A DNA stretch of 64,000 nt from a virus, in IMG/VR virus record IMGVR_UViG_3300020474_002475, positions 1-64,000 of that record; one strand, written 5' to 3'. Below the pieces are notes generated by a model that saw only the letters and a program-made list of their open reading frames with translations, was not told the DNA's origin and did not search any database. This document shows, piece after piece, positions 1-20,533 of the stretch. Positions within the stretch are counted from its first letter, which is position 1, and the number at the start of each line of letters is the position of its first letter. The translations under genes and the position numbers were made by a program.

Positions 1-245
1 CAAGTCCTCCTCCATCTCCGCCACCAGCAAGTCCACCGCCAGCACCTCCACCCGCACCTCCGCCTTCTCCTCCGCCTTCTCCTCCGCCATCTCCACCGCC
101 AGCACCTCCGCCATCTCAACCTCCTTCTCCACCATCTCCAGCACCACCAGCAGCACCACCAGTATCGCCACCAATACCGATACCACCACAGCCACCAGTA
201 CCACCTCCTCCGCCTCCACCTCCACCGCCACCGCCTCCTCCACCA
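1..245 (+). repeat. Low-complexity CCN-rich tract encoding SPPP/APPP repeats
   Basis: Imperfect repeats such as tctcctccgcct, in frame with the upstream part of the first CDS. Confidence 0.9.
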
Positions 246-1700
246 GTAGAGTTTGTTGAATGCTGTGATAATACTGTTAAAATAGATTATAAAAATAAGA
301 TTGATAAAAAACCATTAGCAAGATTATACGGACTAGATAAAAACCAAATATATTATATCAGAGTATCTGCTAAAAATTATGCTGGTACTGGATCTAGATC
401 AGACCCATTAATGGTTAAATATCATTTGACCGAACCTTTTCCTGAGTGCTTACGGGGTGAGGAAAGCCAAGCGGACAGTTCTCACTACTGTCCAAGCTCT
501 CCCGAAACATACAACCAAAAACTATCTTGTGACCAACAACCTGTTTGCAACAAGCCATGTAAACCAGATTCTATAAAGGCGTCTGTAGAAAATAATTATA
601 TACTATTACAGTGGGATCATCCTGTTAATGATGGCGGTTGTGATATTTTTAATTATAATATTAGAATATATTATTGCCCCGATTATTGCTCAGAACCTAA
701 TGATAATTTAAACATTGCTGATGAGTGTGTTCCGGTTGCGTCTCCACCGCCACCTCCTCCACCGCCACCTCCTCCACCGCCACCTCCTCCACCACCTCCA
801 CCTTCTCCTCCACCTCCACCACCAGCTGGTCCGCCGCCAGGTAATCCACCGGCAATTAGCCCACCACCAGCACCTCCACCGCCACCTCCTCCACCCCCAT
901 CGCCACCTCCGGGTGTACAGTTCGGGTTTGCTGGTGTAGATGGTAATCTAAACGTGCTCCACCACCACCACACGTCTTTTACTCCAAATATCGGCATTGA
1001 GATTCAACAATGGACGACAGTGGATCCAGACCTTTATGGTTTGACCATTTATGAATCAGACTCCGTGTGCGGATCTCAATCCCTTAATGTAGGCCAGTTA
1101 GCAAGGTTTCCAGCAGACGGTCGATTCGGTGGCAGAGCCATATACAATCCAGATGTCTTCAAATTTGTTGGCTCGTCGCAGACAGCTCTTTCAAATACAA
1201 TTGATTTGCGTGATGGCCTGACATTCAGTTATTGGTTCAAGTTTCCATTTGCCGTATCTCAAATTAGCACGTATTCGCCAGGATTCGCTTCCTCTGTAAG
1301 CTCCACACCCAACACGCAGTCGATAATACCTGTCAGTTGGCAAACAGATCCAGACGGCACGCCATTCTGGTCTTTTGGTACAGGATTTAGTTCCTTAATT
1401 GCGGCACCAAATCTTATTGATAATATATGGCATAATTTTACTTATTGCTTTGAGCCAAAAACCTGCAAAATGCAATTTTTTCTAGACGGAAAGTCTCAAG
1501 GTACGGTTATAGGTGCCAATGCTGGCAAACCCATTAGCATGTTATATTTAGCTAGTGATCTGGGAGGAGGGTTGCCTTATGTAGAAAGACAAGCATTCAT
1601 GGACTCGATATTCCTGCTCAATCGTGTGTTGTACACAAGCGACTTCACGCCTGTTGTATGTAACCCCACCATCTCCATCTCCTCCAATAGTTTGGAATAG
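3..1700 (+). CDS. 5'-truncated proline-rich virion/fibre-like protein with fibronectin type III half-domains and a C-terminal LamG/concanavalin A-like domain
   Basis: The frame of ORF 411..1700 stays open back to the window start (SPPPSPPPASPPP...). FN3 C-terminal signature GLDKNQIYYIRVSAKNYAGTG at ~330-395; FN3 N-terminal signature ILLQWDHPVNDGGCDIFNYNI at ~600-665; LamG-like LTFSYWFK...IWHNFTYCF...MQFFLDGK...MDSIFLLNRVL. Confidence 0.8.
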   Translation, partial: SPPPSPPPASPPPAPPPAPPPSPPPSPPPSPPPAPPPSQPPSPPSPAPPAAPPVSPPIPIPPQPPVPPPPPPPPPPPPPPPVEFVECCDNTVKIDYKNKIDKKPLARLYGLDKNQIYYIRVSAKNYAGTGSRSDPLMVKYHLTEPFPECLRGEESQADSSHYCPSSPETYNQKLSCDQQPVCNKPCKPDSIKASVENNYILLQWDHPVNDGGCDIFNYNIRIYYCPDYCSEPNDNLNIADECVPVASPPPPPPPPPPPPPPPPPPPPSPPPPPPAGPPPGNPPAISPPPAPPPPPPPPPSPPPGVQFGFAGVDGNLNVLHHHHTSFTPNIGIEIQQWTTVDPDLYGLTIYESDSVCGSQSLNVGQLARFPADGRFGGRAIYNPDVFKFVGSSQTALSNTIDLRDGLTFSYWFKFPFAVSQISTYSPGFASSVSSTPNTQSIIPVSWQTDPDGTPFWSFGTGFSSLIAAPNLIDNIWHNFTYCFEPKTCKMQFFLDGKSQGTVIGANAGKPISMLYLASDLGGGLPYVERQAFMDSIFLLNRVLYTSDFTPVVCNPTISISSNSLE

Positions 1701-1743
1701 TGTATTAACTGAAAATACTGATATGAAAAGTGTATAGAATAAT

Positions 1744-2430
1744 ATGATTATAGAAGAATTTAGAAATCCACAAGAAGACCCATTTAGCCTACTTAATGTG
1801 TGTAGAAAATGCGGACCTAAGATTAATCCTTGTGATAATATATATGAAGCTCTAACGGTAAGAGTATCAGCTGGTCCTGCACAAGGACATAGATGCAATC
1901 GTGCTATATTTGACGCATTTATACTTGACTTTTTGCAAACACAGGAAAGAGGTAAGCCCGTTTGGAGGTATATTCGTAGAACAAATTTTAATAATAATCC
2001 TCCTCCTCCAGGTCAAGGTAAGCAAGTTGAATACGATATTGAATTACCACAAGAATTAGTAGAATCAGTAAATGCAGGTAAAGAAGGCAGGGAAAACTGT
2101 TGTCTTTTAGATATAAAACTAGTACCTGGACCATGGCCTGAGCCTATAACTTTACCGTATGAACAAGAGACGTTGTTAGAAGGCGGTATTGGTATGACAG
2201 AATTTGGTACTGACATATATTTACCTCCTCTTGGTCAAGATAGTATGATTTTAGCTACAAGAACTGGTTTATCGGTTCATAATAATATTGTAAATACCGC
2301 AGTATTTAGAACAAGCGATACTGTCTTATTGGCTCCACCTTTTACTTGGCAGGGACAAAAGCCTATTGACCTATGCGTAGGATTTGACAATCCAGATTTA
2401 TCAAGAGATCCAATAGAGGTTGTTATATAA
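1744..2430 (+). CDS. Hypothetical protein, probably virion/fibre-associated
   Basis: 228-aa ORF between two fibre-like genes; its stop overlaps the next ATG (TAATG). Confidence 0.7.
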   Translation: MIIEEFRNPQEDPFSLLNVCRKCGPKINPCDNIYEALTVRVSAGPAQGHRCNRAIFDAFILDFLQTQERGKPVWRYIRRTNFNNNPPPPGQGKQVEYDIELPQELVESVNAGKEGRENCCLLDIKLVPGPWPEPITLPYEQETLLEGGIGMTEFGTDIYLPPLGQDSMILATRTGLSVHNNIVNTAVFRTSDTVLLAPPFTWQGQKPIDLCVGFDNPDLSRDPIEVVI

Positions 2431-5400
2431 TGGAAGATATGAATATTAATTCCGAATCTATTATTAGTAAAATAGGGCCTACAGGAATAGCTACCACAGG
2501 AATATTAGATTTAAAACAAACAGAATTATTACAAAATTTAACAGAAGGTAGCCTCCAAGAACCTGAAAAAGTATTTAATTCAAGTCAGAAACAATGCTGT
2601 ATTCCTTCGAGTCCTCCGCCTAATCCGCCAGCCCCTCCTGCGGTGAGTCCTTCTCCATCACCTCCAGTTGGTAATCCAAAACAAGATGTGGCTGGTTGTG
2701 TAGAAATGTTTTCGATATACTATAGCCAGAATCAACGGTTTTTAAACACACAAGATCCATTAGAAACAGTCACTTTAAACTACAAAATACAATTTAGAGA
2801 TGGTATATATGACCCCAATGACAAAATCTGGCCAACTGACGGGAACAGAGTAATTTTGTATATAGAAGCTCTTGAAGGAGTAAAAGAACTATTCGACCCT
2901 CATAATATACCAACAACATACCCTAAACAAATAGATTTAAATAATTTAGTCCAGCACTCAAGCCTACAACCGGGCCAACCGCTACCTCCAATAGCACATC
3001 CTCTTTTTCAATTTCCCCCACCATATGTTGGAACAATCTTGAAATGTAACTATGACAGGCTACAAGGAGCAACAGGCCCGACAGATCCTTCTGATAGAGT
3101 AGAATGCGGCACCCTAAGTGGCGGTCAAAATCTTGCTCCTCAGATAATTGAATTTACACAATTTACTATAAAATCTGAAGGAGCAACACCAAACAACAAA
3201 AGAACCTTAACAATTAGAGGTATTATAAGAGATAATAGATTTTACATACCTCAGCCTGGCATAACTAGTTGTGGATATACAGATGGTACGCAGGTTGAAT
3301 TTGACTTAGTGTTTTATGCTGATCAAATACATAGACATTATAAGGATTGGGGATTACAAACTGATCCCGGTGGAGGACAACAACAAAGTAGAATTTCAGA
3401 ATGGGCTACCTACAGGAATAGATCTACAATAGATGGAATACCTTTGAATCCAATAGATCAAGTAATTGAAGCTGCTAGTTTGACGATAGGTAGTGACGAG
3501 GTAAAATGCATACCTGCACTTCCTAGTCCCCCTCGACCTCCTGATCCTATATGCTTAGAATCAATAAGTATTGAGCATTCAAGAAGAGCAAGGGTTGCCA
3601 CAAGCACAAATTACGCAGTCACTAGCTTTATTTTGGACATTTCTTTTCGTAGAGGCTCAATTGATATTACAAGTGGTAAAGCAAGCAATGACTACAGTAA
3701 AAAATCATTTAAAATAGAAACATCATTTTCTTTAGCTCCTATATTTGGAAGAATTTCTAGTGATCAAAGTCCATGGGCCATACCAAGCGACGACCCTCCC
3801 GATTTTACAGGAATAAGTGCTGCAGATATAGGACTGACTTTTAAAAAAGAAGATAAAGCCTCGCATGATGCGGGTCATAACTGCGGTAGTGTTGCGTCAA
3901 AGTTAGACGTTTGGGAAATAGCTAGAGATCCACAAAGCAATCATATTATAAAATACACAGCTAAAGGAAAAATAGATAGTCCACAGGCTGGGGCCGATAG
4001 TATTTGTGAAACTCTAGACACCCCATTTAGTATAGAATTATCGTTAGATACCAAAAGCCTTACCAAAACTTCTGCACAAAGTATAGGTACCATACCTACT
4101 GACGGAGGAATTTGGCAACCAAGTGAATTGGGTCAGGAAGCATGGGAAATCTGCTTAATTAAAGCTGTAAATGATTTGCAAATAACTATTGGTGGGGATG
4201 TTTTCACTTATAATGATAATGTTTTAGGATGCGCACCACCAAGTCCTCCGCCAGCTAGTCCACCACCAGCTAGTCCACCACCAGCTAGTCCACCACCAGC
4301 TAGTCCACCACCAACTAGTCCACCACCAGCTAGTCCACCGCCACCTCCACCTCCTCCACCAGAAGTTGGCACTCCAACATGCTTAGGTCCACTTGTTGTG
4401 GACGATAATATTATTGATGTTACTTTTGAGACTGTTCGGGATATATATGGTCAATATAGCTATAAGTATGTTTTTGAGGGATTGTCTAGTAAAGATCATG
4501 TATTTAAAGCTAGTCCTGGTATTTATGTATTTAAGATTCCATCTACCCACCCAATTGCATTTCATACAAACAGTAATGTAACTTACTATGGAGGTGTTAC
4601 CCCGTATAAAAAGATAGCTTTAGATGGTCAATATAGGGAATATCATACTGGTACTGTAACGGTAACTGTTGATGGTGACTTTGGCACTATATCATATGAG
4701 TGTTATTATCATGGATATATGGGCGGACAAAATAATCTAGTATATGATTCTACTTGTCCACGTCCAGCACCAGGTGAACGAGGCGTAATATGTTTACAGG
4801 GACTCGGAAGCAGCGGTCATACGGCCGGGGGCGGTGTTGATGTTACTGTAGTTAATCAAGATGGAAATAAATATGCTTTTAGTGACCGTGACAATCCTAG
4901 TGTTTGGTCTAGTAGAGATTATAAATTTCAACTTAGAGAGGGTGTTTATAGATTTAGGGGTGTTCCAGAGAGCCACCCAATCGCCTTTCATACAAATAGT
5001 AATCGTGTAACTTATCGGGGCATTAGTTCAAATCTAGTACCTGTTACTAAAATCGCTTTAGATGGTCAATTAAGAGATTATTATTATGGTGTGGTGGAGC
5101 TAACTGTTAATGGTCCCTTCGATACTATGTCGTATGAGTGTTATAATCATGGCTACATGGGCGGAGAAAATAATCTAGAATATAATGCTAGTTGTCGAGA
5201 TCCCAATGCGCCTCCGCCATCACCTCCTCCTCCAGCTCCACCTGCTCCGCTCCCTCCAGTAGCATGCGAAGATTATATTCTTAAAATGGATATGGAGAAT
5301 TTAAGTGATTCTTCAAAACATAATCATACAATATCAACAGTAGGTAATCCAACAATAGATAGTAGTATTAAAAAAGTTGGAAACCACAGTCTTAAATTTA

Positions 5401-8400
5401 ATACCTGGCCACAAGCTGTAAACATAGATACACTAGATATAATTGCACATAATAATCAAAGCGCTTGTGCTAGTCGTTTTACAATTCAATTTTGGGTTTA
5501 TTTTACTGCTTTTAATCGACCCACATCAAGCACCGGTCTTTATTCTCCAAGTACTAATATTATTCTTGGCAATTCAATAAACTCCGCAGAAAATTACTCA
5601 GGAGTTGGATCTCAGTATACAAGCCCAGGTAACTTTTCAATATTTTTAGTTGAGTTCAATGGTGAACATACTATGCATATGGAGGTTCTAGGAAGCTGTG
5701 AAGTCAGGACCAACCGAGTTAGTGTTTTTAATACTGAGCGGATTCAAAAAAACAAATGGTATCATGTCGCCATATCTAGATTTCGTGATGTTGAACGAGA
5801 CTCTCTAGTTACTAAAATGTTTATAAATGGTAAGTGCAGAGGCTATAGGTTTGACGGTAGCGATCATAGTCACATTGACTATAAGGATTATCTTTTAGGA
5901 AATGGATATAGTGGAAACCCTTTGACTCAAACCAAGTTAGCCATAGGATTCGAAGGCACCACATTACCGGGGCCTGGCCCTAACACATATGTAGACGCAA
6001 AAAATTTCATAGGAAGCATTGATCAGCTAGAAATATTGGACAAAGGCTTGTATACACGAGATTTTGATGTTAACGAAATTGTATATAACGATTGTGATTC
6101 CTCTCCATCTCCACCCCCACCGCCACCATCTCCACCTCCATCGCCACCTCCGGTTCCTATTTCACCACCAACCCCAGAAACCCCACCTCCATCTTTTGGT
6201 GCTGGAACATTCATAAAGTTTGAAACAAATGCCCCGGATGGAAACAAAAACTTCTATGTTAAGTTAACAGAAAATACCCCTAAAACAAAAGAAAACTTTT
6301 TAAAGTATGTAACAAGCGGAAGATACAACAATACATTTTTCCATCGCTCTCTACCTCCAATGCCATCACAAAACACAGCCCACCTTACACTTATTCAGGG
6401 AGGCGGCTATAACGCACCTGTTGTTCCTTCTACTGATGCTGGCAGCAATCCTACGATGATACATAGATATGGAACAGTTGTCAACGAACCGGGCAATTCG
6501 AATGTTAAAGGTTCTATAGCAATGGCTAAATTGGGCGGTCAACCGAATAGTGCATCAAGTCAATTCTATATTAATACTAAAGATAATGTGCCTTGGTTAA
6601 ACGTAGATAACGGAGGATACACAGTATTTGGTAATGTAGTACACGGCATGGATGTTGTTCACAAGATGAATAATGCAGAAACATACGACGCCACAATATT
6701 TTACGGGATGCAGGGTTTTTCGGATATGCCCTTGTGGAGGTACGAAAAGCGTACCAACATAGTACGGCCGGACGATTTTGTGAAGATTTTAAAAGTTAGC
6801 ATATATACACCATCGGCTGCTCCTCCACCTCCTAGCCCACCTCCAGCTAGTCCGCCGCCTGCACCACCAGTTCCTATTTCAATAGCAAATTTTAATGCTA
6901 TGGTATTAAATTCAGCTGATTTTTTTGATCTGCCAACAGCTATGTACAGTCAAGCGGTTGTTCCTAGTACAGCACCCGATTATAAGCAATGTTTATTTAC
7001 ATACCAGTTGACACAACCAAAAGACGTAGCGGTTACACAAATACAAATATATGCAAATACAATAGAAGATGACGGAAGTGTGCAGGCAGCATTGAGAACA
7101 GTTTTTGATAATCCTCTTGTCAATGGCAACGATGCTGGTAAATATACTGCTGGTGAATCAATGAATTACCAAGAAGTTATTGTAATTCCTGAACAAAACA
7201 ATAATCGCGTTCTTAATGTTCGATTTTTAGCCAACGTTTTGTTTGAAAGTGGTATATCACAAAATATCAACGCTCTTGATCGGCCCTATAGTAGACGACA
7301 AAGGTTTAAGATAAGATACAAGTATCGTATGTCTAACGATACCACTGATAGATGGACCCCGTTTATAGAGAGTAATATTGTAGACCCAGATAATATTAAC
7401 GATCAGTATTTTAATGATCAGACACAGATTGATTCTTCTCCAAGATGGACTACGAGTACCGAAGCTACGCCGATAGTTAAAGATCCATCTTTATACGTAA
7501 AAAGAAATCTTACTGATGATAATGCTGAGTTAGAATTAAAAGTAACAATTCCAAATATCTCAGGTCGAGCTGGAACTACTGAAGCTAAAAACTTTAATTT
7601 AAGAATAGAAACAAAAAGTCACGAAAATAGAGATTGGCGTTATCGTAATGATCCAATATCTCGAACTACAAATAAATGGACAGGGAAGCCCATACCTAAC
7701 AGAGGATTAGTAGTAAAAGAAGGACAAACTAAAACATTTACAATACCATTTACTTTTACAAATTGGATGCAATATAAAAGTCAAGAATTTAGAATACGTA
7801 TTGAAGAAAATATTATAGATAATGGATATATTAATACTCAAAATTTTTCTAATCAGTATCAAGGCAAATGGCTTGTAGAAAATAAAAACAATGATGCATG
7901 GATGTACAAACCAAACGCTAGATTACCAGAAAACTTTTTGGTAGGCCCGTGGTATTATTTTAACAATACATACAGTAATAGAAATGGACCTTTTAAGACT
8001 GCGCCCCCAAGTCCACCACCAGCATCTCCACCCCCTGCACCCACTTCAAATCTTTACGCACAGTTTTGGGATGGGTATTTCTGGCCCAACTTTTTGGGAA
8101 ACACAGTAGTAGAAGGACATTTTCCTGATCATCCAAGGCCACCAGGCGTAACAATAACATATAAAAAGCCTACTATTATTCAAACGTATTATACATCTTC
8201 ATTTCAATGGAATCAAGACCCATATCCTTTTACAGGAGCCATGGGAGACATTGGATGTTTTGCTTTAGGTTCAAATACAGCAATAGAGGTTTATGAGACT
8301 GTTGAGGATGCTGAAAATAATCGTAACATGCTAGGATTTGTTGCTGGCCCTTTAATTTATGAAACCAGCAGAGGCGGGTCTAAATATTTGTATGATAATC

Positions 8401-10493: not shown

Positions 10494-10506
10494 AAGGTTT
10501 AATAAA

Positions 10507-11928
10507 ATGGCACTTACTAATTTAAATATAGAAGTAACACAAATGGCTGTAGGGTATGGTCACTATTTAGCTATAGGTACTGACGGAGCTTTATACTCAT
10601 GGGGATTAAATAACCATGGTCAATTAGGTCATGGAGATAAAGTTAATAGATCTAATCCTACAAAAGTTGGAAATAAAACAGATTGGACTCAGATAGCATG
10701 TGGGGATTACCATTCTGTTGCACTGGATAGTAGAGGGATTGCATATGGTTTTGGTTTCAATAATAATGCGCAAGCTGGTGTTGGACAGTATGTAGGTAAT
10801 TCACACACTGGTATTGGTGGTACAAATAGTACATCTGATATAATATTTCCTACGCAAGGATTTTCAACCAGCAGTAATAGTGACCTCTCCACCATGAACG
10901 GTACTGACTATGGTGGAGCAGCATTGATAAAAGCTGCTGCAAATTACACTGTGATTGACTATATATTTCCAGGAGGAAATGCATTCACCACCTCATTTAG
11001 TCTAGGAGGAACTTGGGTATACGGCAACTCATTTGTATTTGATGAGATCGATAACCTTACTGCAGGGCCAAACGCGATATATAGTGAACGAAGGCATATT
11101 GCAAACTTACGAGACGGATCGGATTCCGACAGTGGGCGTATTGGTGGCTATGCCACCAAAGTCTTGCGCAATATAAGCAAATGTGAAATTAGTAGAAATT
11201 TTATAGCAGTTACAACAGGAACATCAGGTATAGACTGTTTGGGGAATTTACCGCTGAGTATGGTGACAAAACCTACAATCACTGCTCCTAACGGAGCTGC
11301 AGGTGATAAAAAAGCGATTGCTGATAACGAATGGGATTCGGGCTCAGGACCCAGAAAGGGCCTTTTTGGGGTAGGACCGCAATATGGCGTGGATACTGTA
11401 CAAAACTTTATGACAGTTAGAACACAAGGGTGGGAGCGTTTAAGAAGAGCAGAAGGGTCAGTCAACGCCAATAATTTTTCTGGTCCAGTAGATAACACCA
11501 ACTATATTGATTTTGGGGTAGGTGACGATTTTATTTTAGCAATAGATAGCGAAAACAGATTGCACGGAATGACTTTTGCAACATCTAACGGAACTGAAAT
11601 CCCATCTACTTCTGTTGGTAATTTTGGAGTGCAAGTATTAAGGAATAATCTCATCAATCCTAATAATAGATATGTTATTCATGGCATGGCTTTGATAGAT
11701 TCTAGCAGACGTTGGCTCAGTGTTTCTTGCGGGGCCAAACATGCTATAATTTCTGATGTTGATGGTAATATATTCTCTATAGGCAACAACAGATACGGAC
11801 AATTAGGTAGAGCCTATAATAATTTAGGAAACATTACAGAGATAGCGCAATTACAGTCCCCAGCAAACACATCAGGTTTCAATATACATGCCTGCGGCCC
11901 ACAAGCCTCATTAATTGCTAAAAGCTAG
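10507..11928 (+). CDS. RCC1/BLIP-II repeat beta-propeller protein
   Basis: MAVGYGHYLAIGTDGALYSWGLNNHGQLGHGD...WTQIACGDYHSVAL and C-terminal VSCGAKHAII...GNNRYGQLG; start moved to ATG 10507, after the giant gene's stop. Confidence 0.85.
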   Translation: MALTNLNIEVTQMAVGYGHYLAIGTDGALYSWGLNNHGQLGHGDKVNRSNPTKVGNKTDWTQIACGDYHSVALDSRGIAYGFGFNNNAQAGVGQYVGNSHTGIGGTNSTSDIIFPTQGFSTSSNSDLSTMNGTDYGGAALIKAAANYTVIDYIFPGGNAFTTSFSLGGTWVYGNSFVFDEIDNLTAGPNAIYSERRHIANLRDGSDSDSGRIGGYATKVLRNISKCEISRNFIAVTTGTSGIDCLGNLPLSMVTKPTITAPNGAAGDKKAIADNEWDSGSGPRKGLFGVGPQYGVDTVQNFMTVRTQGWERLRRAEGSVNANNFSGPVDNTNYIDFGVGDDFILAIDSENRLHGMTFATSNGTEIPSTSVGNFGVQVLRNNLINPNNRYVIHGMALIDSSRRWLSVSCGAKHAIISDVDGNIFSIGNNRYGQLGRAYNNLGNITEIAQLQSPANTSGFNIHACGPQASLIAKS

Positions 11929-14177
11929 TGCTCTCTTCTAATATTTCCGTCATAATGATCAAACCGATCATGTGTAATAGGAGAAAGTAATAGTAAAGCT
12001 GGTTTTATATAACCAGTAAGTGTTTTTTGATATATATACGACATCCATGTTTGTTCATATGGATGTGCCCATTTAGTTTCTAAAAACATTTTTTTACTAC
12101 CCTTTTTACTTACTATCTGAGGCCAATTGCAATAATAAACCTCACCATCAGCATAAGGTAACCCGTTATAAGATTTAATATTATTAAAATTGCATAGCGG
12201 GGGATTTTTCTCTAAACCATGTTCTGGTAGTTTAGTTTTGTTAGGCCACACCTCTTCTCTAACCTTTTGTGGGACATTGTACCAAGACCACTGTATAGTA
12301 TTATTTCCAAAAAATTCAGTAAAGCTCCATTTCAAAAAGTCATATTGCTCTCTATCCATAATTCCCAGCATGTCATTATAGATATTTTCATGATATTTAG
12401 AAAAACCATTTTCGCATTTTGCTGCTGCAAAAGAAGAGTCATTCATACCCATATCATCTTCAAAGAATATCATATATTCGTTAGCTGTAGTGTCAAAATG
12501 TTCAGCAATAAATTGTCTACCTCCACAAATACCTAAATTGTCTTCTTTAAATTCTGTAAAATTATATAGTTTAAAAAGACGCTTGTACTCTTTATCACAA
12601 GATTCATCAACACTATTATTTAATACATACTTATCGCTATTATTAAACATTTCAGGTGAAGCATTTTGTATTTTATTGACTGTAAACTCAAACTGTTTTG
12701 GTGAATTAAAAGTAACTATATATAAATCGGTTTTATGTTTAAAAGACTTTGTTTTGCATACCCAAGCAACATCTGCAAATTCTGTATGGTAGTCTTTTAA
12801 TTTATGTTTAACAACGGATTCCGATATATCATTATCATTAATCTCCATCCAATTCCACACCTTGTCCTTATATTTTTCTGCAAAAGTTGTTGCATCAGGC
12901 GCATAATCATGAGCCATAATTATATCACCAAGCTTTAAAAAATCAGAATAGGTATTAAACTCTTTAATTTTATTGCCACCATCACATAACACTAGAGCTT
13001 TACCGTGTGTAGATATTAGCTCTTTAACTTCTGTTATTGTTTTCTCGTCAAAAATGTCTTGTTGTTTAAAATTTATGCGTCTTTTGGTAAATTCGTCATT
13101 GTTTGTAATGCCAGCATCAGGATTTTTTTCATAAGTAATGAAAGATATATCATGTTTTTTACACTGATCACTTAAAAACATAGACAATCCACCGCCACCA
13201 GATCCAAGTTCTACTACTAAATCTAGATCTTGATTTTTTTCAAAAAACTTTTCAAAAACTTCTAATGCAGCCGGGTGCTGTTGCACTCTAGCATTAAGAT
13301 GTATAAATGTTCCTACTCCTGTAAACTTTTTTAGTTCATCACTTTGTGTAGTATTATTCTGTAATCTTTCAAAGAAATCAAAAACAAGACCATTACCTTG
13401 TATCATTTGGGTATTGCATAATCCAGGATAAAGATATGTAAGTATTGTATATAAAGATTCTTCAGTGCCCATATACCCTTCATCTAAAGAGTGATGAGCA
13501 AGTTGTCTAAACTTATCAGAAAAGAAAGTACACTCTGTTTTTCTTCCTCCAAAAAAAGTAGCTCTAGCTACTCTATCGACATACTTTGCTTTACTAAATT
13601 TGTGCATTCCATCTCTTTTGAAGCCATGTATTTCTCCATGCCCTTCATAAGGAAAACATAAAAATAAAAACTTATTTAGATGAGGTTCTAGCCTGTCTTC
13701 TAACCAAGGCTTAGAAAAGTATCCGGGGTGACACTGAGCGTTGGCGATACCTGCATCAAGCCAAACAAAATATTCTGTATCAAATGGATTCTCTTCTGCT
13801 ACATCAGACAGCCAGTGAATTTTATTAAATATTAAAGGGTTATATAATTCTAAATTAGCTTGAGTAGACTCAGACAACCATCCCACTTGATTTCTCCACT
13901 CATCGTCTTTCCTTATTTTTTGTATTTTTTGGTAATATTCTGATTGTCTAATACTGTCGCAGTCTATATATTTGACAATAATATTTTCATTTTTAATAGA
14001 TTTAATTAAAGGCTCATGTTCTTTTTCTATATAGATAACTAAATTTTTATCTTTGATATGCTTCAATAATACTGATAGTGTGTCTAAGTATCTTTTGAAT
14101 GGTCTTTGGAAAGTATTTGAAGTTAATTCTTCTCTTTTTATATCTAACAGTGCTGTGACAAATGTAATCTTACTCAT
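11925..14177 (-). CDS. Multidomain glycan-modifying protein: HtrL/WlaTC-like glycosyltransferase, class I SAM methyltransferase-like domain, GT-A-like C-terminal domain
   Basis: ITFVTALLDIKR...ENPFDTEYFVWLDAG; VVELGSGGGG...LCDGG...IIMAHD; LGICGGRQF...YMIFFEDD; start at MSKITF. Confidence 0.7.
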   Translation of the reverse strand: MSKITFVTALLDIKREELTSNTFQRPFKRYLDTLSVLLKHIKDKNLVIYIEKEHEPLIKSIKNENIIVKYIDCDSIRQSEYYQKIQKIRKDDEWRNQVGWLSESTQANLELYNPLIFNKIHWLSDVAEENPFDTEYFVWLDAGIANAQCHPGYFSKPWLEDRLEPHLNKFLFLCFPYEGHGEIHGFKRDGMHKFSKAKYVDRVARATFFGGRKTECTFFSDKFRQLAHHSLDEGYMGTEESLYTILTYLYPGLCNTQMIQGNGLVFDFFERLQNNTTQSDELKKFTGVGTFIHLNARVQQHPAALEVFEKFFEKNQDLDLVVELGSGGGGLSMFLSDQCKKHDISFITYEKNPDAGITNNDEFTKRRINFKQQDIFDEKTITEVKELISTHGKALVLCDGGNKIKEFNTYSDFLKLGDIIMAHDYAPDATTFAEKYKDKVWNWMEINDNDISESVVKHKLKDYHTEFADVAWVCKTKSFKHKTDLYIVTFNSPKQFEFTVNKIQNASPEMFNNSDKYVLNNSVDESCDKEYKRLFKLYNFTEFKEDNLGICGGRQFIAEHFDTTANEYMIFFEDDMGMNDSSFAAAKCENGFSKYHENIYNDMLGIMDREQYDFLKWSFTEFFGNNTIQWSWYNVPQKVREEVWPNKTKLPEHGLEKNPPLCNFNNIKSYNGLPYADGEVYYCNWPQIVSKKGSKKMFLETKWAHPYEQTWMSYIYQKTLTGYIKPALLLLSPITHDRFDHYDGNIRREH

Positions 14178-14922
14178 TAAAGGCTTCCTTGTATAGTCTA
14201 AAATCATACGAGTTAATTGTGCGTAGAAAATTCTCAATATCTTTTGGTACTTTGTGTGGATTTTCTGTTTTGCTTTGCATTGGTCTATGTTTCAATTGGA
14301 ACAGGTCGAAAACTTTACCAACTGTTGCGGTGTAATCTTCAAACTTACCCACGAATATCATTCTCTTTAAGTTATGTTTTGCTTTTTGAAATACTTGCTC
14401 GTCTACATCACATTCATTTGCTAGATTTATCCCTGCTAATATTTTTGTCATATAATTACTAAAACCATGCCTCTCATGCATCATGAGTCCAGATGTGTTA
14501 TTGGTTTCAATATATTGCTTGGCATTACTCCAGAACTGTTCACTATTAATCTCACAGTCGCTAGCTATTGCGCTTTTAAAATTCCTGGAACTAGTAACCT
14601 TTTTTATAAAAGAAATTGTTCTATTTAAAGGATCTCTTAATATAGTCATATATTTATATTCGTATTCTTCAGGTAAAAATTTATGAATATTTAAAGAAAA
14701 ATGTCCAGAAAATAATCTGGCAGTAGGCCAGTTGGGAATAGATAAAAGATTTTGCTGTCTTCCTACATCTCTTTCTATATATTCTACAAGACCCAACTTA
14801 TTGGGAACCTGTTCATTGGGTGTTCCAAAAAAGTTTAAAAATTGATCTGGTCCCATAATTGTAAGCAGGGCTTCTAAATATGTCCCACCAGTTCTGGGTA
14901 TATGAGCAAAACCTATTTTCAT
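14170..14922 (-). CDS. Sulfotransferase (Sulfotransfer_2-like)
   Basis: 5'-PSB motif HIPRTGGT and 3'-PB motif TILRDPLNRTIS. Confidence 0.8.
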   Translation of the reverse strand: MKIGFAHIPRTGGTYLEALLTIMGPDQFLNFFGTPNEQVPNKLGLVEYIERDVGRQQNLLSIPNWPTARLFSGHFSLNIHKFLPEEYEYKYMTILRDPLNRTISFIKKVTSSRNFKSAIASDCEINSEQFWSNAKQYIETNNTSGLMMHERHGFSNYMTKILAGINLANECDVDEQVFQKAKHNLKRMIFVGKFEDYTATVGKVFDLFQLKHRPMQSKTENPHKVPKDIENFLRTINSYDFRLYKEAFNE

Positions 14923-14926
14923 AATT

Positions 14927-15670
14927 CTACCACCTCACATGAGTTCTACCGTCTTTAGATTGAAATTTAAAACATTCTGACATTATCTTATGATGATTAT
15001 TAATCGCTAACATACCAGCATCTGTATATGACATACCTATCTCAACTCCTTCAGCCCAAGGTCTTATGTTGTTCTCTAAACATATAATATTTCTTTTCTT
15101 CCAAGAATCAACGAATATTGACATTTTTTTATTATTTTTAAATACTAAAAACTGTTCATTAACAACATGCGCATTATCATACTTATTTGTGTTTTTAAGA
15201 TTATATAAATCAACCTTATGCCTCCAAAACAAACGGTTTTCTTTTTTACAGCCAGATATAAGATGAGGTCTTTCAAAAACAAAATCCGAGTCCGATTGCA
15301 TGAATGTGTCAATAAATAATCTAACTTTATCTATTTGAAAATTACCATGAGTCTTCCAATCAGAATCTATAAATATTATACAGTCTGTGTCGTTTTGTGC
15401 TGATGAAGCAGCTATGGGTAGATATTTTAAATTAAAATTAAATTCATTTCTGTGTCCGTGTCTATAAAATAATTTATGATTACTATTTGCTATATTAATA
15501 TTTTTACAAGAGTTGGACATATTATTGTCGGTATCAGTAACGCATAAGAAGTTTAGCTTTATTTTGTGGCTATGTAAAGAATCTTGTATACAAATATTAT
15601 CTATTAATCTATAAAAACTATCTTGATAATCCTTACCTATTGCTATGCTGCATATAGTAGTATTAATCAT
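14927..15670 (-). CDS. Putative GT-A fold glycosyltransferase
   Basis: CSIAIG.DY, CVTD, FNFNLK and IIFIDSD (DxD); operon context. Confidence 0.55.
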   Translation of the reverse strand: MINTTICSIAIGKDYQDSFYRLIDNICIQDSLHSHKIKLNFLCVTDTDNNMSNSCKNINIANSNHKLFYRHGHRNEFNFNLKYLPIAASSAQNDTDCIIFIDSDWKTHGNFQIDKVRLFIDTFMQSDSDFVFERPHLISGCKKENRLFWRHKVDLYNLKNTNKYDNAHVVNEQFLVFKNNKKMSIFVDSWKKRNIICLENNIRPWAEGVEIGMSYTDAGMLAINNHHKIMSECFKFQSKDGRTHVRW

Positions 15671-16616
15671 TAATAACTTTCTCTAAAAAACTAAACACAT
15701 AATCTTCTTTATAATCATCAGGAAGTCTATTGTTTGTAAATATAGGTTGTTCTAATTTTTGTTTAAGTAGTTTTTCATCTTCATTAATTCTTTTTATATG
15801 TTCTACAACAGCATCTATATCATCATTAAAATCGTGACAATTAATAAAAGCTTCAGGATTCCAACCGTCTTCTAATATTTTATGGTTGCCCCAGAATATC
15901 GGAATAGTATTTGCAGCAAATGCCTGTATCATTTTTTCTTGAGAAAAATAATTAAGCAAGTGAGTCTGTATCTGTAGTGAGAAAAGACACTCATCCATAA
16001 ATTTATGTTTATTCCCATATCCTTCTTTCTCGTCTCTACCTCTTACAAACCCTTCTACATTAGTCTCAAAAGCTCCAACGGCACGAACAAACTTATATGC
16101 ATGTAGCTTATCAAACATTTTACGTCTGTATTCTACTTTAGAATTTTGAACAATAGCACAAAAGTATTTCTTTTTTTGTTTAATTACTTCATAGTCTTTT
16201 TTGTCTAACATCCAACCTTCCGGTATAAGATTACAAACAGCTTGAAGCCACCACCCCTGAACAACAGAATGAAATTGACATGGTAAGATTTTATCATTAA
16301 TCACACTAGAAGGCCAACCAATTGCATAATTTAAAGGCTCCTTGATAAAAACAGAAAAATCATTCACTACTTCTCCACTAACAAAAATTCTTTTGTGTCC
16401 AACATAATCAGAAGAGACTTTACACTCTTGTCCTGTTACGGTATCTATTTGGCCTTTGGGGGTAGAAAGATTAGAACATATAACAATATCTGGATTGTCA
16501 TTAGTCACTATGACATTATATTTTCTGTCTAGTAAATACTTTACATATTCAAAAAATGCTGCTGCAGATCTCTGAGAACAACTGGCTCTTGTGATTTTTA
16601 CATTTGGTTTATTCAT
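15663..16616 (-). CDS. GT10 family alpha-1,3/4-fucosyltransferase-like protein
   Basis: KKYFCAIVQNS...RRKMFDKL...YFSQEKMIQAFAANTIPIFWG...NPEAFINCHDF. Confidence 0.8.
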   Translation of the reverse strand: MNKPNVKITRASCSQRSAAAFFEYVKYLLDRKYNVIVTNDNPDIVICSNLSTPKGQIDTVTGQECKVSSDYVGHKRIFVSGEVVNDFSVFIKEPLNYAIGWPSSVINDKILPCQFHSVVQGWWLQAVCNLIPEGWMLDKKDYEVIKQKKKYFCAIVQNSKVEYRRKMFDKLHAYKFVRAVGAFETNVEGFVRGRDEKEGYGNKHKFMDECLFSLQIQTHLLNYFSQEKMIQAFAANTIPIFWGNHKILEDGWNPEAFINCHDFNDDIDAVVEHIKRINEDEKLLKQKLEQPIFTNNRLPDDYKEDYVFSFLEKVIND

Positions 16617-17305
16617 AATTCCTTGGTGATCTTTATAGTATCTGGGGTATTAGGACCATTATCGTGAACGATATACGGAGATTGTTTGATAATAAATTTA
16701 TCTCTTTCAAATGTTATGTCTGCCTTGGCTTCAAGCGTACTAAAGAAAATAGACCTATGTTGATCAACCTTAATCTCTTGTTGATTATCATGTATGTATA
16801 AATATGTCCAATTGCCTTGATCGTCTATATTTTCATACGGTCTCTGATGTGTCAACGTCTCTAAACAATGTATGATATAGTCAGTATATCCAATATATGC
16901 ACCAGAATTTAAGTAGCAATAGTCAGAAAGTTTTGGTTTAGTATTATAAAGATTGGTCGCTTCTGTTTTAGGCCATATATGAGGATCTGCACAAAACAAA
17001 GCTTTGCATTGATGTTTTAGAAAATCTGTAACCATATTGATAGGGTCTTTATAAAAGTTGGTATCGGTAGCGTCTAAAAATAATATATAATCTTTAAGAT
17101 TTTTACAAGACTTAAGATATTCTAAAAGTTTTGGAACTTTATAATAATATAGTTTATCGTACCTTGAACCTTCTATTTCTTTCTTATATCTTAATATATG
17201 AATGTCAGAATTATCAAAATACTTCATAGCATTACTTTGGAATACTGTAGGGTAATTATCGGGGTACTCAAACAAAGTAGAAAGTAAACTTAGATTATTA
17301 GTCAT
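16613..17305 (-). CDS. PLOD (procollagen lysyl hydroxylase N-terminal)-like glycosyltransferase domain protein
   Basis: ILFLDATD, LFCADPHIWP, YLNSGAYIGY, DDQGNWT, IKVDQHRSIF, IVHDNG. Confidence 0.75.
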   Translation of the reverse strand: MTNNLSLLSTLFEYPDNYPTVFQSNAMKYFDNSDIHILRYKKEIEGSRYDKLYYYKVPKLLEYLKSCKNLKDYILFLDATDTNFYKDPINMVTDFLKHQCKALFCADPHIWPKTEATNLYNTKPKLSDYCYLNSGAYIGYTDYIIHCLETLTHQRPYENIDDQGNWTYLYIHDNQQEIKVDQHRSIFFSTLEAKADITFERDKFIIKQSPYIVHDNGPNTPDTIKITKEL

Positions 17306-17987
17306 TTTTAATATCCTTCCAGTATTTTAAACATATATTAGGCTTATCGAAGTAAGTATCATAGAATGGTTTTGTTTCTTCATAAAATGGAACACCTAAA
17401 GATTTTTGATCTTCTCTATTGAACCATACTATATTCAAATCTATAGATTTAAAAAATTGTAATAAAACACCAAATCCTGTAAGACAGCTATATATAGGAT
17501 TTGTATTCTTTACACATAAGTTAACATTATAGTTTATGTCAAAATTTTTATCAAATTTAATATATTTATATCTGTCGTCAGGAAACTTCCCGCATCTACG
17601 CATGATAGGTCTATCATTATTGGGTGTATTTTTGTCTATCACTATGGGCATAGATAATTTATCAAAAGGAATATCTACATCTTTATAATTTAATATTAAG
17701 TTTTCATCGATACTTAAACCTAATCTTAAAGCCTCACATCTTGCTCTGCAGGGTCTTGGTTCATCACACCTATGAGCCTGTATATCTAAATCTCCTTTAG
17801 TGTCTAAAAAATCTACTTCATCTATAAAGTTTTGATAAAGTAAAAAGTTTTTTAATCCTGAGAAAACAGAATATCTTTTAGGCAAGGAAAGGTGGATGTA
17901 CTTCTCTCTTTTTTTTAATGAAGAAACAAGAGGTAACAATGCAATAAAATCACCTAATGTGCCTGTATTTTTATGAGTAACTATCAT
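17298..17987 (-). CDS. Hypothetical protein, possibly GT-B/GT9-like
   Basis: N-terminal TLGDFIALLP resembles the GT9 IGDxv motif; operon context. Confidence 0.5.
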   Translation of the reverse strand: MIVTHKNTGTLGDFIALLPLVSSLKKREKYIHLSLPKRYSVFSGLKNFLLYQNFIDEVDFLDTKGDLDIQAHRCDEPRPCRARCEALRLGLSIDENLILNYKDVDIPFDKLSMPIVIDKNTPNNDRPIMRRCGKFPDDRYKYIKFDKNFDINYNVNLCVKNTNPIYSCLTGFGVLLQFFKSIDLNIVWFNREDQKSLGVPFYEETKPFYDTYFDKPNICLKYWKDIKND

Positions 17988-19243
17988 AGCATTCCGGTAA
18001 TTGGTTCACACCATCCCTTTGATATACTATGGGGCCATACTAACCAGCTTTGTGGCTGTTTTGTGGTATTAAATTCTCTCCATAACTTAATATAACCATC
18101 CGGATCATTTTTGATTCTTTCTATCTCTGCTAAATCGGCGTCTTGTCTAAATACATCTTCATTATTAGAATCTCTAAAAGCAACACACCAAAAATCATAA
18201 TCAGTATCAGGCACTTGACTAAATTGAATATCTATACAGTGTTTGAATATTCTACTTAAAGATTTATCAAAGTCTTCATCAGAAATATTTTTTATATTAT
18301 CAAGATCAGGTATCTTTTTTTCAATCACCGTTTGAGTAATAGACCTATTACCAAAACATAAACCCGCATATTTTTCATAATCTTTTAAAGATCTAGTTTT
18401 ACCAAAACCATATTCTCCAAAATCAATATCTCTTTTTTCTCCATCCATTTCAAATAATTTTCTATTTCTCAAATGACATGCACTGTTCCTTGATCCCCAT
18501 TCTTTATCGTCGTCCCATTGCTTGGTCCTTCCTTTCCTAGTGTACTCATGCCAAACAAGTACCTCATTAGGATGAAATAAGTCATAACCATGAGTGAAAG
18601 CCCTAACTGCTATACTAATTTCTTCTCCATGAAAATAGTAATTAGGATCATGAGGAACTTCTTTGCAGAATTTACCTGTTGTAAAAGCAAAATGGGCGCT
18701 ATAAAATCTAGACGGTAAAGGCTCATCGGAATTATCCCACGAATCATATGAAGCAGGAATAAAAAATACAACTCCCTCTGGAGTAAATCTATCAAAATTC
18801 ATTTTCCAAGGCACATTCACACGGCCTTCAGGATCATTTTCTGGATCAAAACTAGGTATATAAGATGTCAATAAAGGTTTTTTATGTCCTTTCTTCTTAA
18901 TCTTTTTATACATAGACACCAACTTCTTGTCCCAATCTTGTACAAATCTGTGATGGCTATCTAGTTGTAAAGTATATTCTTCATTGTCATACATCTGCTG
19001 AACAGCATGTCTTGCCCAGCATACTCCTTTGCTTTCAGAATAATCAACATCCATAATCTTAAATCTTTTATCATTAATAAATTCATCTAAATTATCCCAC
19101 TCGTCTTCTTTACTATGCTGCCAACATATGCCTACAACCAAGTTTTCTGGCTTTGCTGCTTTACTAATCATATCTTTTAAAGTTGGCAATAATTCTGGAT
19201 CTCTATAGGAAGCTATCTGTATGAATATCTTATTCTTTTTCAT
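17984..19243 (-). CDS. GT60 family GlcNAc-transferase (Skp1-hydroxyproline / polypeptide alpha-GlcNAc transferase-like)
   Basis: IFIQIASYRDPEL, SKGVCWAR, YTLQLDSHHRF..WD, YSAHFAF, YFHGEEI...RAFTHGYDLFHP...WHEY. Confidence 0.8.
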   Translation of the reverse strand: MKKNKIFIQIASYRDPELLPTLKDMISKAAKPENLVVGICWQHSKEDEWDNLDEFINDKRFKIMDVDYSESKGVCWARHAVQQMYDNEEYTLQLDSHHRFVQDWDKKLVSMYKKIKKKGHKKPLLTSYIPSFDPENDPEGRVNVPWKMNFDRFTPEGVVFFIPASYDSWDNSDEPLPSRFYSAHFAFTTGKFCKEVPHDPNYYFHGEEISIAVRAFTHGYDLFHPNEVLVWHEYTRKGRTKQWDDDKEWGSRNSACHLRNRKLFEMDGEKRDIDFGEYGFGKTRSLKDYEKYAGLCFGNRSITQTVIEKKIPDLDNIKNISDEDFDKSLSRIFKHCIDIQFSQVPDTDYDFWCVAFRDSNNEDVFRQDADLAEIERIKNDPDGYIKLWREFNTTKQPQSWLVWPHSISKGWCEPITGML

Positions 19244-19301
19244 TATTATGTTTCGTTATTGTTGAGTATAAGGAAGTATATTAATCTCGCTGGCCTGCAT
19301 A

Positions 19302-19330
19302 ATATTAATAACCAAATGGGTTGTAGTCAA
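19302..19330 (-). promoter_or_regulatory. Putative sigma70-type promoter for the minus-strand glycosyltransferase operon
   Basis: On the minus strand, TTGACT (19330-19325), 17-nt spacer, TAATAT (19307-19302); about 60 nt upstream of the ATG at 19243. Confidence 0.55.
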
Positions 19331-19364
19331 TCTAACAAAATCTTATTTTCTACTGCTTTGTAGC

Positions 19365-19393
19365 TTGACAAGGTTCGTGCTTTAATATACAAT
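19365..19393 (+). promoter_or_regulatory. Near-consensus sigma70 promoter upstream of the DUF1559 gene
   Basis: TTGACA (19365-19370), 17-nt spacer, TACAAT (19388-19393); GGAGGA RBS before ATG 19444. Confidence 0.75.
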
Positions 19394-19443
19394 ATACAGT
19401 GGAACCCAATAAACTCATTTCCCTTTTCTGTGGAGGAAATACT

Positions 19444-20331: not shown

Positions 20332-20353
20332 TTATTAGAAAATATAAATAAAA

Positions 20354-20533
20354 ATGGACGAAGTTAAAAATAAGAAGCATAAGATTATTAAAAGAAAAAC
20401 CAAATCTATTAGTAATCCTAGTGAAGAAGAAAAAGAAAAGAAAAAAATAGCTAATAAGGAATTTAAAAAAAACAAAAAAGAAAATATAGAAGATCAAGAA
20501 GATTGGGAATATTGGCAGGAATATTATAAATGA
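20354..20533 (+). CDS. Small Lys/Glu-rich hypothetical protein (59 aa; not in the ORF track)
   Basis: MDEVKNKKHK...EDWEYWQEYYK*; stop overlaps the next ATG (ATGA). Confidence 0.65.
   Translation: MDEVKNKKHKIIKRKTKSISNPSEEEKEKKKIANKEFKKNKKENIEDQEDWEYWQEYYK

Follow-up and report, generated by a model that had tools for sequence, protein, structure and literature searches.

The stretch of DNA analysed here, hereafter the window, comprises the first 64 kb of the 117,939-bp linear virus record IMGVR_UViG_3300020474_002475 of IMG/VR, a phage record in which 105 open reading frames (ORFs) were counted and whose completeness is 83% according to CheckV. At its left end, genes for very large proteins with proline arrays run on the plus strand towards seven tightly packed minus-strand genes (19243 to 11925) for glycan-building enzymes; the last gene of this operon and the convergent RCC1 gene overlap by 4 nt at their stop codons. 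This work deals with the enzymes of the operon, in particular with its first gene product, a glycosyltransferase (GT) of family GT60, and with the proteins that they could modify. The operon includes the following genes:

17984-19243, minus strand: GT60-family enzyme, similar to the polypeptide N-acetylgalactosaminyltransferases (ppGalNAc-transferases); PF11397, E = 7e-77; first gene of the operon
17298-17987, minus strand: probable GT9-like transferase of 229 residues, a lead only; no Pfam match; ESM Atlas template-modelling (TM) score of 0.69 to PF01075 clusters
16613-17305, minus strand: GT-A enzyme with a PLOD glycosyltransferase domain; PF25342, 4e-21, 75.8 bits (cut-off 27)
15663-16616, minus strand: GT10 enzyme (alpha-1,3-fucosyltransferase family); PF00852, 4.1e-11, 43.3 bits (cut-off 23.9), C-terminal domain only
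14927-15670, minus strand: probable GT-A-type nucleotide-sugar transferase of 247 residues, a lead only; no Pfam match
14170-14922, minus strand: sulfotransferase; PF03567 (Sulfotransfer_2), 5.6e-7, 30.4 bits (cut-off 22)
11925-14237, minus strand: HtrL/methyltransferase/GT-A fusion of 770 residues with HtrL_YibB at its N-terminus; last gene of the operon

A preliminary description of this DNA had listed a GT60-like enzyme, a PLOD-like GT, a GT10 enzyme, a sulfotransferase and a fusion of a GT with a methyltransferase, and had asked for a profile check of the first three; Pfam profiles agree with the whole list, the matches to PF11397, GT10 and the PLOD domain all lie above their cut-offs, and the GT-A part of the fusion is recognised by eye. 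The middle of this 770-residue protein is an FtsJ/CmcI-type methyltransferase dependent on S-adenosylmethionine (27.8 bits, cut-off 24.1), and its C-terminus is a conserved domain of about 270 residues that looks GT-A-like and has no Pfam match. The 247-residue ORF has ESM Atlas TM scores of 0.64-0.74 to Nucleotid_trans, TOD1/MUCI70 and GT6 clusters.

The first gene encodes a bona fide GT60 member, given that PF11397 scores 259.7 bits against a cut-off of 21, with the best stretch at profile positions 94-348 of 352. The enzyme has a GT-A fold, and its residues D95-S96-H97, invariant in 48 sequences, form an Asp-x-His metal motif that we take to be the one of families GT27 and GT60. The fold is closest to that of the polypeptide GalNAc-transferases, which start O-glycans on protein; a sequence search of the PDB with the GT60 enzyme gave no match. 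A beta-rich C-terminal domain (residues 333-419, window 17984-18245) is confidently modelled, falls outside the structure matches, and sits where the ppGalNAc-transferases carry their lectin domain. Relatives of the enzyme are present on 455 viral contigs and among 7860 database proteins.

The glycan genes continue past 19243 on the plus strand to about 29910, and the operon is one half of an island of about 18 kb (11925-29910). Genes for sugar-nucleotide supply lie further downstream:

20980-29910, plus strand: second half of the island, with genes for Methyltransf_24, a GT32-like enzyme (Caps_synth/DXD), two GT2 enzymes, FkbM methyltransferases, a GT4 enzyme and several unnamed ORFs
42751-44218, plus strand: genes for an RmlB-like dTDP-glucose 4,6-dehydratase and an RmlC-like dTDP-4-dehydrorhamnose 3,5-epimerase (dTDP, deoxythymidine diphosphate), for the supply of 6-deoxyhexose

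The RmlB-like protein scores 236.7 bits with TIGR01181 versus 49.4 with gmd, and the RmlC-like protein 115.7 bits with TIGR01221, all below the equivalog cut-offs; two further methyltransferase genes are located at 46730 and 49570. Since these sugar-nucleotide genes are of the dTDP-6-deoxyhexose type, the fucose that the preliminary description had placed in the glycan depends on the GT10 match; this match is above its cut-off, and genes of a pathway for guanosine diphosphate (GDP)-fucose do not accompany it. The plus-strand half of the island is partly conserved in the four whole relatives compared. Within it, a 178-residue protein encoded at 28316-28852 ranks among the best-conserved proteins of the clade, with 69-86% identity when the four whole relatives are compared; its matches to nucleoside 2-deoxyribosyltransferases are sub-threshold only.

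No hydrophobic segment was detected in the island enzymes, nor a multi-span protein among the 105 ORFs, and the profile scan of island ORFs brought up no flippase, polymerase or lipid-carrier transferase. The lack of membrane segments and export genes favours glycosylation in the cytoplasm, with a soluble acceptor that would most simply be a protein, and from its gene content the interval 11925-29910 reads as a cytoplasmic glycan-building island.

The proteins with proline arrays are encoded at both ends of the record:

3-1700, plus strand: fib1, Pro-array protein 1; truncated at its 5' end by the start of the contig, 565 residues visible, 24% Pro
1744-2430, plus strand: g228, a protein of 228 residues, family unassigned; no Pfam or PHROG match
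2430-10493, plus strand: fib2, a multidomain fibre-like protein of 2687 residues with seven (A/S)PPP-type linkers
10507-11928, plus strand: RCC1-repeat (beta-propeller) protein, last gene of the plus-strand block; PF00415 1.9e-26, PF13540 3.4e-26, phrog_7220
record positions 98945-101137, 104323-110955 and 116907 to the contig end, minus strand: Pro-array proteins 3-5, with (ASPPP)n/(VSPPP)n

The convergent arrangement of two fibre-like proteins built on Ser/Ala-Pro3-n linkers (ORFs 3-1700 and 2430-10493) with the seven-gene operon (19243-11925) is thus as it had been described. The visible part of fib1 includes SPPP/APPP arrays such as SPPPSPPPASPPP, a stretch of 20 successive Pro and, at the C-terminus, a globular domain; the PHROG search with it gave no match, and an fn3 match in fib1, as well as a LamG match in the fibre block, are below the Pfam cut-offs. 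The far end of the record carries giant minus-strand genes, three of them with (ASPPP)n or (VSPPP)n arrays, and several of the giant proteins encoded there have long Thr-Pro linkers. The Pro arrays are not due to chance, given that the median Pro fraction of the 105 ORFs is 3.6% and that, of 69 PPP occurrences counted over the five Pro-array proteins, 54 are preceded by Ser. Ser-Pro(n) arrays of the kind that mark hydroxyproline-rich glycoproteins are accordingly present in five proteins of the record, and a collagen-like Gly-X-Y run of at least six triplets is absent from all 105 ORFs. Among the giant proteins, the only part that matches PHROG tail-fibre families (E about 1e-15) is the N-terminal domain of a 1149-residue protein encoded at 95481-98930.

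Two features of fib2 deserve description. Residues 1262-1420 (nt 6213-6689, approximately) form an embedded cyclophilin-type peptidyl-prolyl isomerase (PF00160, 3.4e-32), perhaps a foldase that the fibre carries for the Pro arrays. By eye, two fib2 domains (residues about 700-1000, about 4500-5500) show a Cys-x2-His-x2-Met motif reminiscent of cupredoxins (examples are YECYYHGYMGG and YYCGNHSGMGG), a copy of which is also found in the N-terminus of the protein encoded at 95481-98930.

The GT60 module and the proline arrays in related phages

Twenty-five window proteins were compared by tblastn with the best 80 of the 455 GT60 loci (63-72% identity in GT60), each taken as the GT60 gene plus 10 kb on either side. 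GT60 was found in all 80 and the protein with HtrL and the C-terminal domain, by its C- or N-terminal part, in 76; the PLOD-type enzyme was found in 6, GT10 in 4, the 247-residue ORF in 7, the sulfotransferase in 1 and the 229-residue ORF in none. In most loci, a 553-residue gene product with HtrL and the C-terminal domain is encoded directly upstream of GT60; in others, as in the window, a variable cassette lies in between, and GT25 genes are present in 27 of the 80 loci. The identity of GT60 in the four whole relatives (66-72%) is similar to that of the helicase (62-68%), the N-terminal part of DnaE (62-72%) and the UvsX-like recombinase (69-73%). Given that GT60 is conserved like the replication genes while the intervening genes vary, GT60 together with HtrL/GT-A is, as judged from gene content, the core module of a large clade, and the set of PLOD-type enzyme, GT10 and sulfotransferase is one swappable cassette. 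The stretch 4-9 kb downstream of GT60 frequently codes for a subtilase, in 56 of the 80 loci (L001-L080), for a trypsin-like protease, in 52, and for an HNH nuclease, in 41; an actin homologue of the Volactin type is encoded there in 38 loci and RuvB in 22.

The module reaches cultured phages. XacN1 and Xoo-sp13, two jumbo phages of Xanthomonas, have a GT60 homologue with 46-48% identity (ORF334 in XacN1) and an HtrL/GT-A gene, with a carbamoyltransferase gene between them; in both phages GT60 is located about 5 kb from the genes for DNA polymerase and RNase H. The XacN1 report states that two or more glycoproteins were detected in the virions, and suggests ORF328 and ORF334 as their makers (PMC5852040).

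The distribution of the Pro arrays is different. For 42 of the 80 loci the source record was queried; 32 whole records were examined, of which 11 are at least 90% complete by CheckV, and a long Pro array was defined as at least three matches to the pattern (XPPP)3 or (XPP)4. By this definition, 10 of the 32 relatives have long Pro arrays, among them 4 of the 11 complete relatives. Linkers of the type (TP)4 occur in 9 of the 11 complete relatives, a figure that stands without a GT60-free comparison set. In one relative (G006, 89316-96803, L105) a 1049-residue protein carries an array of more than 50 SPP units followed by BNR-like repeats, and a 931-residue protein of the same relative combines a polyproline head with hundreds of Cys in CxxC-like repeats.

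When metagenomes were scanned with g228, a closer sub-lineage came to light, in which GT60 is 77-79%, the HtrL/methyltransferase fusion 77% and the sulfotransferase 48% identical to the proteins of the window. Homologues of g228 (36-38% identity) occupy the same position in five metagenome loci and mark the fibre block in this sub-lineage. Three contigs, L126, L127 and L129, extend across the region, and all of them show a Pro-array protein at the contig end followed by g228 and a cyclophilin fibre, convergent with the genes for HtrL/methyltransferase, sulfotransferase, a 378-residue protein and GT60. The Pro-array protein of L127 has a run of up to 60 Pro. The cyclophilin part of fib2 is 41-51% identical in L125-L127 and L129, where it is placed at the C-terminus of the fibre, and PF00160 is also matched by the L127 fibre. 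The layout of the sub-lineage is kept although g228 is only 36-38% identical; it may reflect either conserved synteny or functional coupling.

Some of the relatives encode an oxygenase that is relevant to the Pro arrays. A PF13640 protein of 283-319 residues is present in 9 of the 32 relatives and belongs to a family of 49 database proteins. Examples are found at:

44103-44990 in G025 (L117)
122574-123422 in G006 (L118)
loci L130-L162

Its residues H126, D128, H219 and R228 are invariant, and the protein shows the features of a double-stranded beta-helix oxygenase dependent on Fe(II) and 2-oxoglutarate (2OG), i.e. the His-x-Asp...His triad and the 2OG-binding Arg. It is similar to OGFOD1/Tpa1, and the enzymes of the nearest structures hydroxylate the ribosomal protein uS12 or EF-Tu. 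The nine carriers occupy three positions in the GT60 tree (G010; G025 and G029; and a clade with G005, G003/G004 and G002/G006/G007), and each of these three lineages has long Pro arrays, such as the array of more than 50 SPP units in G006 and G-P(8-19) in G025. Pro arrays are present in six of the nine carriers; the three without an array (G002, G004 and G029) are records of 25-65% completeness. Thus, of the 32 relatives, 6 have both oxygenase and arrays, 3 the oxygenase only, 4 arrays only and 19 neither (one-sided Fisher p = 0.013 for the 32 records, which are not independent, and 0.11 for the 11 complete ones). In seven oxygenase-centred loci the oxygenase gene is followed, 1.3-2.5 kb further downstream and on the same strand, by a Pro-array ORF, and the distance between oxygenase gene and GT60 in G025 is about 4 kb; with a threshold of 60% Pro, the proximity to a Pro-array ORF is modest (6 of 33 oxygenase-centred versus 6 of 80 GT60-centred loci). 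An apparently perfect association (2 of 2 versus 0 of 9) obtained with (XPPP)3 only was dropped, given that this pattern missed (SPP)n, and (XPP)4 was added. A P6 pattern applied to DNA proved unreliable, since it also matches Gly runs of the opposite strand and other frames, and was not used for the association. In these genomes the link between oxygenase and arrays is suggestive. Alternatively, given that the nearest structures act on uS12 or EF-Tu, the oxygenase may leave the arrays unmodified and tune the translation of polyproline tracts (20-60 successive Pro codons).

Candidate acceptors and competing explanations

The reading that we prefer, to which we assign a probability of about 0.4, is that the phage O-glycosylates phage proteins with a conserved initiator and a variable cassette, the Pro/Ser/Thr-rich linkers of its giant proteins being the most plausible acceptors. 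The GT60 enzyme, similar to the ppGalNAc-transferases, would add the first N-acetylhexosamine to Ser or Thr of a protein, or to hydroxyproline where a hydroxylase exists. The conserved HtrL/GT-A partner, to which a methyltransferase domain is fused in this phage, would work with GT60, and a lineage-specific cassette (here the GT9-like, PLOD-type GT-A, GT10 and GT-A-like enzymes and the sulfotransferase) would extend and decorate the chain; the plus-strand half of the island would add GT2, GT4 and GT32-like enzymes and further methyltransferases, and the RmlB/RmlC-like genes would supply a 6-deoxyhexose. The acceptors would be the phage's own large surface-type proteins, with Ser-Pro3 and Thr-Pro linkers as mucin- or extensin-like sites. 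The product would consist of variable, methylated and sulfated glycoprotein fibres, which on the virion could serve in shielding or adhesion; a role as a lure that mimics sulfated fucans, raised in the preliminary description, is purely conjectural. A broader version of this proposal is doubtful: that a widespread aquatic lineage of large phages, marine and freshwater, makes mucin- or extensin-like glycoproteins whose Ser-Pro(n), (SPP)n and (TP)n arrays are O-glycosylated by the core GT60 in the host cytoplasm, some of them after hydroxylation by an enzyme similar to OGFOD1 or a prolyl 4-hydroxylase, with methyl and sulfate groups added by the cassettes.

A considerable set of observations weighs against the preferred reading. 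The protein acceptor is deduced from a shared fold, which is no proof of a protein substrate. Of the 11 complete relatives, 7 have GT60 and lack Pro arrays, and therefore such arrays are no obligatory acceptor of GT60; the co-occurrence of GT60 with SPPP proteins, which the preliminary description had set as a test, turned out negative, since these seven relatives carry GT60 and its partner without arrays. In the 80 loci, fib1 and g228 have no counterpart, fib2 and the RCC1 protein have one each, and the PLOD-type enzyme, GT10 and sulfotransferase vary among lineages (6, 4 and 1 loci); the four whole relatives lack homologues of fib1, g228 and fib2, and in most relatives the island adjoins genes for subtilase, trypsin-like protease, HNH nuclease, Volactin and RuvB, not fibre genes. 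The virion location of the Pro-array proteins is putative, the one tail-fibre PHROG match being that of the protein at 95481-98930, and large phage proteins commonly have (TP)n linkers. The sugar-nucleotide genes seen are RmlB- and RmlC-like only, although GDP-fucose of the host could serve. For the PLOD-type enzyme, neither a 2OG oxygenase nor a Gly-X-Y substrate was found in the record, and the parallel with collagen glycosylation drawn in the preliminary description is left without a collagen-like substrate or a lysyl hydroxylase. In the window no prolyl 4-hydroxylase had been seen at the outset, and the scan of the rest of the 118-kb record gave none either: PF13640, PF03171 and PF13759 had no matches while the positive controls were detected, and a homologue of the relatives' oxygenase is absent. 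The record is 83% complete and both of its ends are cut inside array genes, and for this reason the absence from the record does not prove absence from the phage. Arrays without the oxygenase are also present in G015, G020 and G026/G027; the records of G015 and G026/G027, like the present one, are cut at an array gene. Finally, the synthesis of lipopolysaccharide (LPS) or capsule is the usual context of the HtrL, GT25, GT9-like and Caps_synth-like families. The original proposal that the phage builds O-glycans on its own polyproline fibres agrees with the fibre-operon layout kept in the sub-lineage and with the soluble nature of the enzymes, but not with the presence of GT60 in phages without arrays or with the variability of the cassette; a specific link of glycosylation to the polyproline fibres is thus partly supported.

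Several of these points would fit an arrangement in which proteins are indeed glycosylated but the acceptor of GT60 is a conserved phage protein (capsid, tail or a conserved giant protein) or a host protein, the neighbouring Pro arrays being an accident of gene order. GT60 and HtrL/GT-A are present in all relatives examined, including the 7 of 11 complete ones without arrays; conservation at the level of replication genes suggests a conserved substrate and is explained better in this way than by fibres, which have no homologues in the four whole relatives. A precedent exists in the mycobacteriophages, whose glycans sit on capsid and tail-tube subunits, as stated in PMC12619734, which cites Freeman 2023. 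This alternative is nonetheless unlikely: the sub-lineage keeps its fibre-operon layout despite the 36-38% identity of g228, genes similar to prolyl hydroxylases track the long Pro arrays in the relatives, and among the proteins scanned no capsid or tail protein was recognised that would point to a specific core acceptor. Another possibility is that the island remodels the glycans of the host envelope (LPS, capsule or other surface polymers), for instance to block superinfection, with carriers and export provided by the host. HtrL_YibB comes from an LPS-core gene neighbourhood, and together with it Caps_synth/GT32-like, GT2 and GT4 enzymes are encoded in the island, as is the GT9-like lead; to these are added the GT25 genes of 27 of the 80 loci and a host-derived pilin-like gene inside the island. 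This is the customary interpretation of variable GT clusters in jumbo phages, and hypervariable GT cassettes of jumbo cyanophages have been interpreted in this sense in PMC7824862. We consider envelope remodelling rather doubtful, given that neither membrane-spanning enzymes nor lipid-carrier transferases, flippases, polymerases or ligases turned up and the island enzymes have no hydrophobic segments, that the lead enzyme is closest to transferases directed at polypeptides, and that it is a strictly conserved core gene, which would be unusual for a superinfection-exclusion moron.

It is very improbable that the GT60-like enzyme glycosylates a hypermodified base of phage DNA as a protection from restriction. 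Phage GT-A and GT-B enzymes that glycosylate DNA with 5-hydroxymethylcytosine or 5-hydroxymethyluracil are described in bioRxiv 10.1101/2023.12.21.572611, and in XacN1 and Xoo-sp13 GT60 lies close to the genes for DNA polymerase and RNase H; in contrast, a hydroxymethylase of the thymidylate-synthase family is absent in 12 of 12 records (its control was detected in 10 of 14 genomes), Tet_JBP was not found in the same number of records, a weak negative given that its control was silent, and more than 10 GT domains together with a sulfotransferase and GT10 are hard to fit to a DNA adduct.

Comparison with known glycosylation systems

Glycosylation of proteins in the cytoplasm occurs in chloroviruses, mimiviruses and mycobacteriophages, and few examples are known of phages that glycosylate their own proteins with enzymes that they encode. 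Family GT60 includes Gnt1, which in Dictyostelium and Toxoplasma glycosylates Skp1 on hydroxyproline after the action of the prolyl 4-hydroxylase PhyA, and the UDP-GlcNAc:polypeptide alpha-GlcNAc-transferase of Trypanosoma cruzi (GlcNAc, N-acetylglucosamine), which starts mucin O-glycans on Thr. The acceptors of the T. cruzi enzyme are Thr/Pro-rich repeats, to which the (TP)n linkers of the present phage and of 9 of the 11 complete relatives may be compared; unlike this membrane protein of the eukaryotic Golgi, the phage GT60 has no membrane anchor and carries the extra C-terminal beta domain of residues 333-419. The animal polypeptide GalNAc-transferases (GT27) initiate mucin-type O-glycosylation, whereas the phage enzyme shares only 11-17% identity with them, belongs to another Pfam family and shows no match to a ricin-type lectin domain. 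In extensins the modification takes place in the secretory pathway, with GT95/GT96-type transferases (arabinosylation of hydroxyproline and galactosylation of Ser); in the phage no secretory-type machinery turned up, and no search was aimed at GT95/GT96.

The giant viruses offer a further parallel. PBCV-1 has the prolyl hydroxylase vCPH with Pro-rich repeat proteins, and the GT-GT-methyltransferase protein A064R; Mimivirus has fibril glycans, the PLOD-like L230 and a surface cyclophilin. As in these viruses, the machinery of the phage is virus-encoded, clade-variable and predicted to be cytoplasmic, it includes a multidomain GT/methyltransferase protein, and a cyclophilin goes along with surface fibres; as in PBCV-1, a viral prolyl-hydroxylase-like gene is paired with Pro-rich proteins, in this case in the relatives. 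For the viral prolyl hydroxylase, the structure 5c5t is among the Foldseek matches. In contrast with the giant viruses, which infect eukaryotic hosts, the phage record has no collagen-like Gly-X-Y repeats, and we know of no GT60 initiator or sulfotransferase in giant-virus glycosylation. The capsid glycans of PBCV-1 are noted in PMC5852040. The mycobacteriophages, according to Freeman 2023 as cited in PMC12619734, decorate their own structural proteins in the cytoplasm, as is proposed here; they do so with few GTs at the C-termini of capsid and tail-tube proteins, whereas the present phage has an island of about 18 kb with more than 10 GT domains, methyltransferases, a sulfotransferase and GT60, and its acceptors are proposed from sequence. 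In the literature searched, which left most subscription journals outside, no description of a phage system of GT60, prolyl hydroxylase and polyproline was found.

If correct, the preferred reading would extend phage-protein glycosylation to an abundant uncultured clade of large aquatic phages, and would bring to phages an initiation chemistry like that of eukaryotes (GT60/GT27-type) together with sulfated and methylated glycans. Its broader version, if true, would give bacterial viruses their first glycoproteins of the hydroxyproline-rich or mucin type, and the polyproline fibres would be served by a cyclophilin built into them. The rule that the preferred reading offers is that a conserved initiator with a swappable cassette would give rise to clade-specific coats; XacN1, which carries the module of GT60 and HtrL/GT-A, is a cultured entry point, and the question is raised of how phages translate and fold runs of 20-60 prolines, with an embedded cyclophilin and OGFOD1-like hydroxylases found in the company of such arrays.

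Phage, host and genome context

The record is a 118-kb fragment of an uncultured marine jumbo-type phage. The PHROG scan covered 27 of its proteins and gave matches to ribonucleotide reductase, a DnaB-like helicase, primase, exonuclease, a UvsX-like recombinase and a split DnaE-type polymerase. None of these 27 was recognised as a capsid, portal or terminase protein. PMC12619734 describes the moraphages as a large aquatic lineage with core GTs, to which the present phage may or may not belong. The operon is found nearly identical in marine metagenomes of 9 studies, in one viral-fraction metagenome and in two metatranscriptome libraries of one study; contigs of these RNA libraries (two runs of the one study) cover both fib2 and the operon, which is no proof of transcription.

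A gene probably acquired from the host separates the two halves of the island:

19399-20331, plus strand: type IV pilin-like protein (N_methyl and DUF1559); PF07596 3.3e-28, PF07963

It is 78-86% identical to chromosomal genes of metagenome-assembled genomes (MAGs) of Pirellulales/Planctomycetaceae, one of them on a 3.04-Mb contig, and its GC content (0.44) stands out from that of the adjoining window bins at 14001-22000 (0.30-0.37), the MAG flanks having about 0.48. Because of this GC contrast and of the identity to the MAG genes, it looks like a recent capture from the host. This host-derived gene, by its identity to the MAG genes, favours the Planctomycete host that had been supposed from the start, and the host is probably a member of the Pirellulales (Planctomycetota). 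The pilin-like gene is present in 1 of the 80 related GT60 loci (L060, 88%).

Assemblies of this clade break repeatedly inside Pro-array genes, as seen at the starts of L126, L127, L129, G003 and G015 and at the end of G026, and therefore the completeness estimates of such records are doubtful. The present record likewise starts (window 1-250) and ends (record 117517-117939) inside Pro-array genes on opposite strands. Extension past its ends was not achieved, given that viral contigs contain no relatives of g228 or of the last protein and that the metagenome relatives break at the Pro array too.

Two further regions are shared with the four whole relatives. Conserved large proteins of 2512, 2118 and 652 residues are encoded at record positions 79592-95460 and are 23-41% identical in all four; the 2118- and 652-residue proteins gave no match in the PHROG scan. 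The DnaE-type polymerase, with at most about 34% identity to any entry of the cultured-phage collection, is split at record positions 63079-67452 into ORFs of 624 and 541 residues with a conserved ORF of 223 residues between them, and the same split is present in the four whole relatives.

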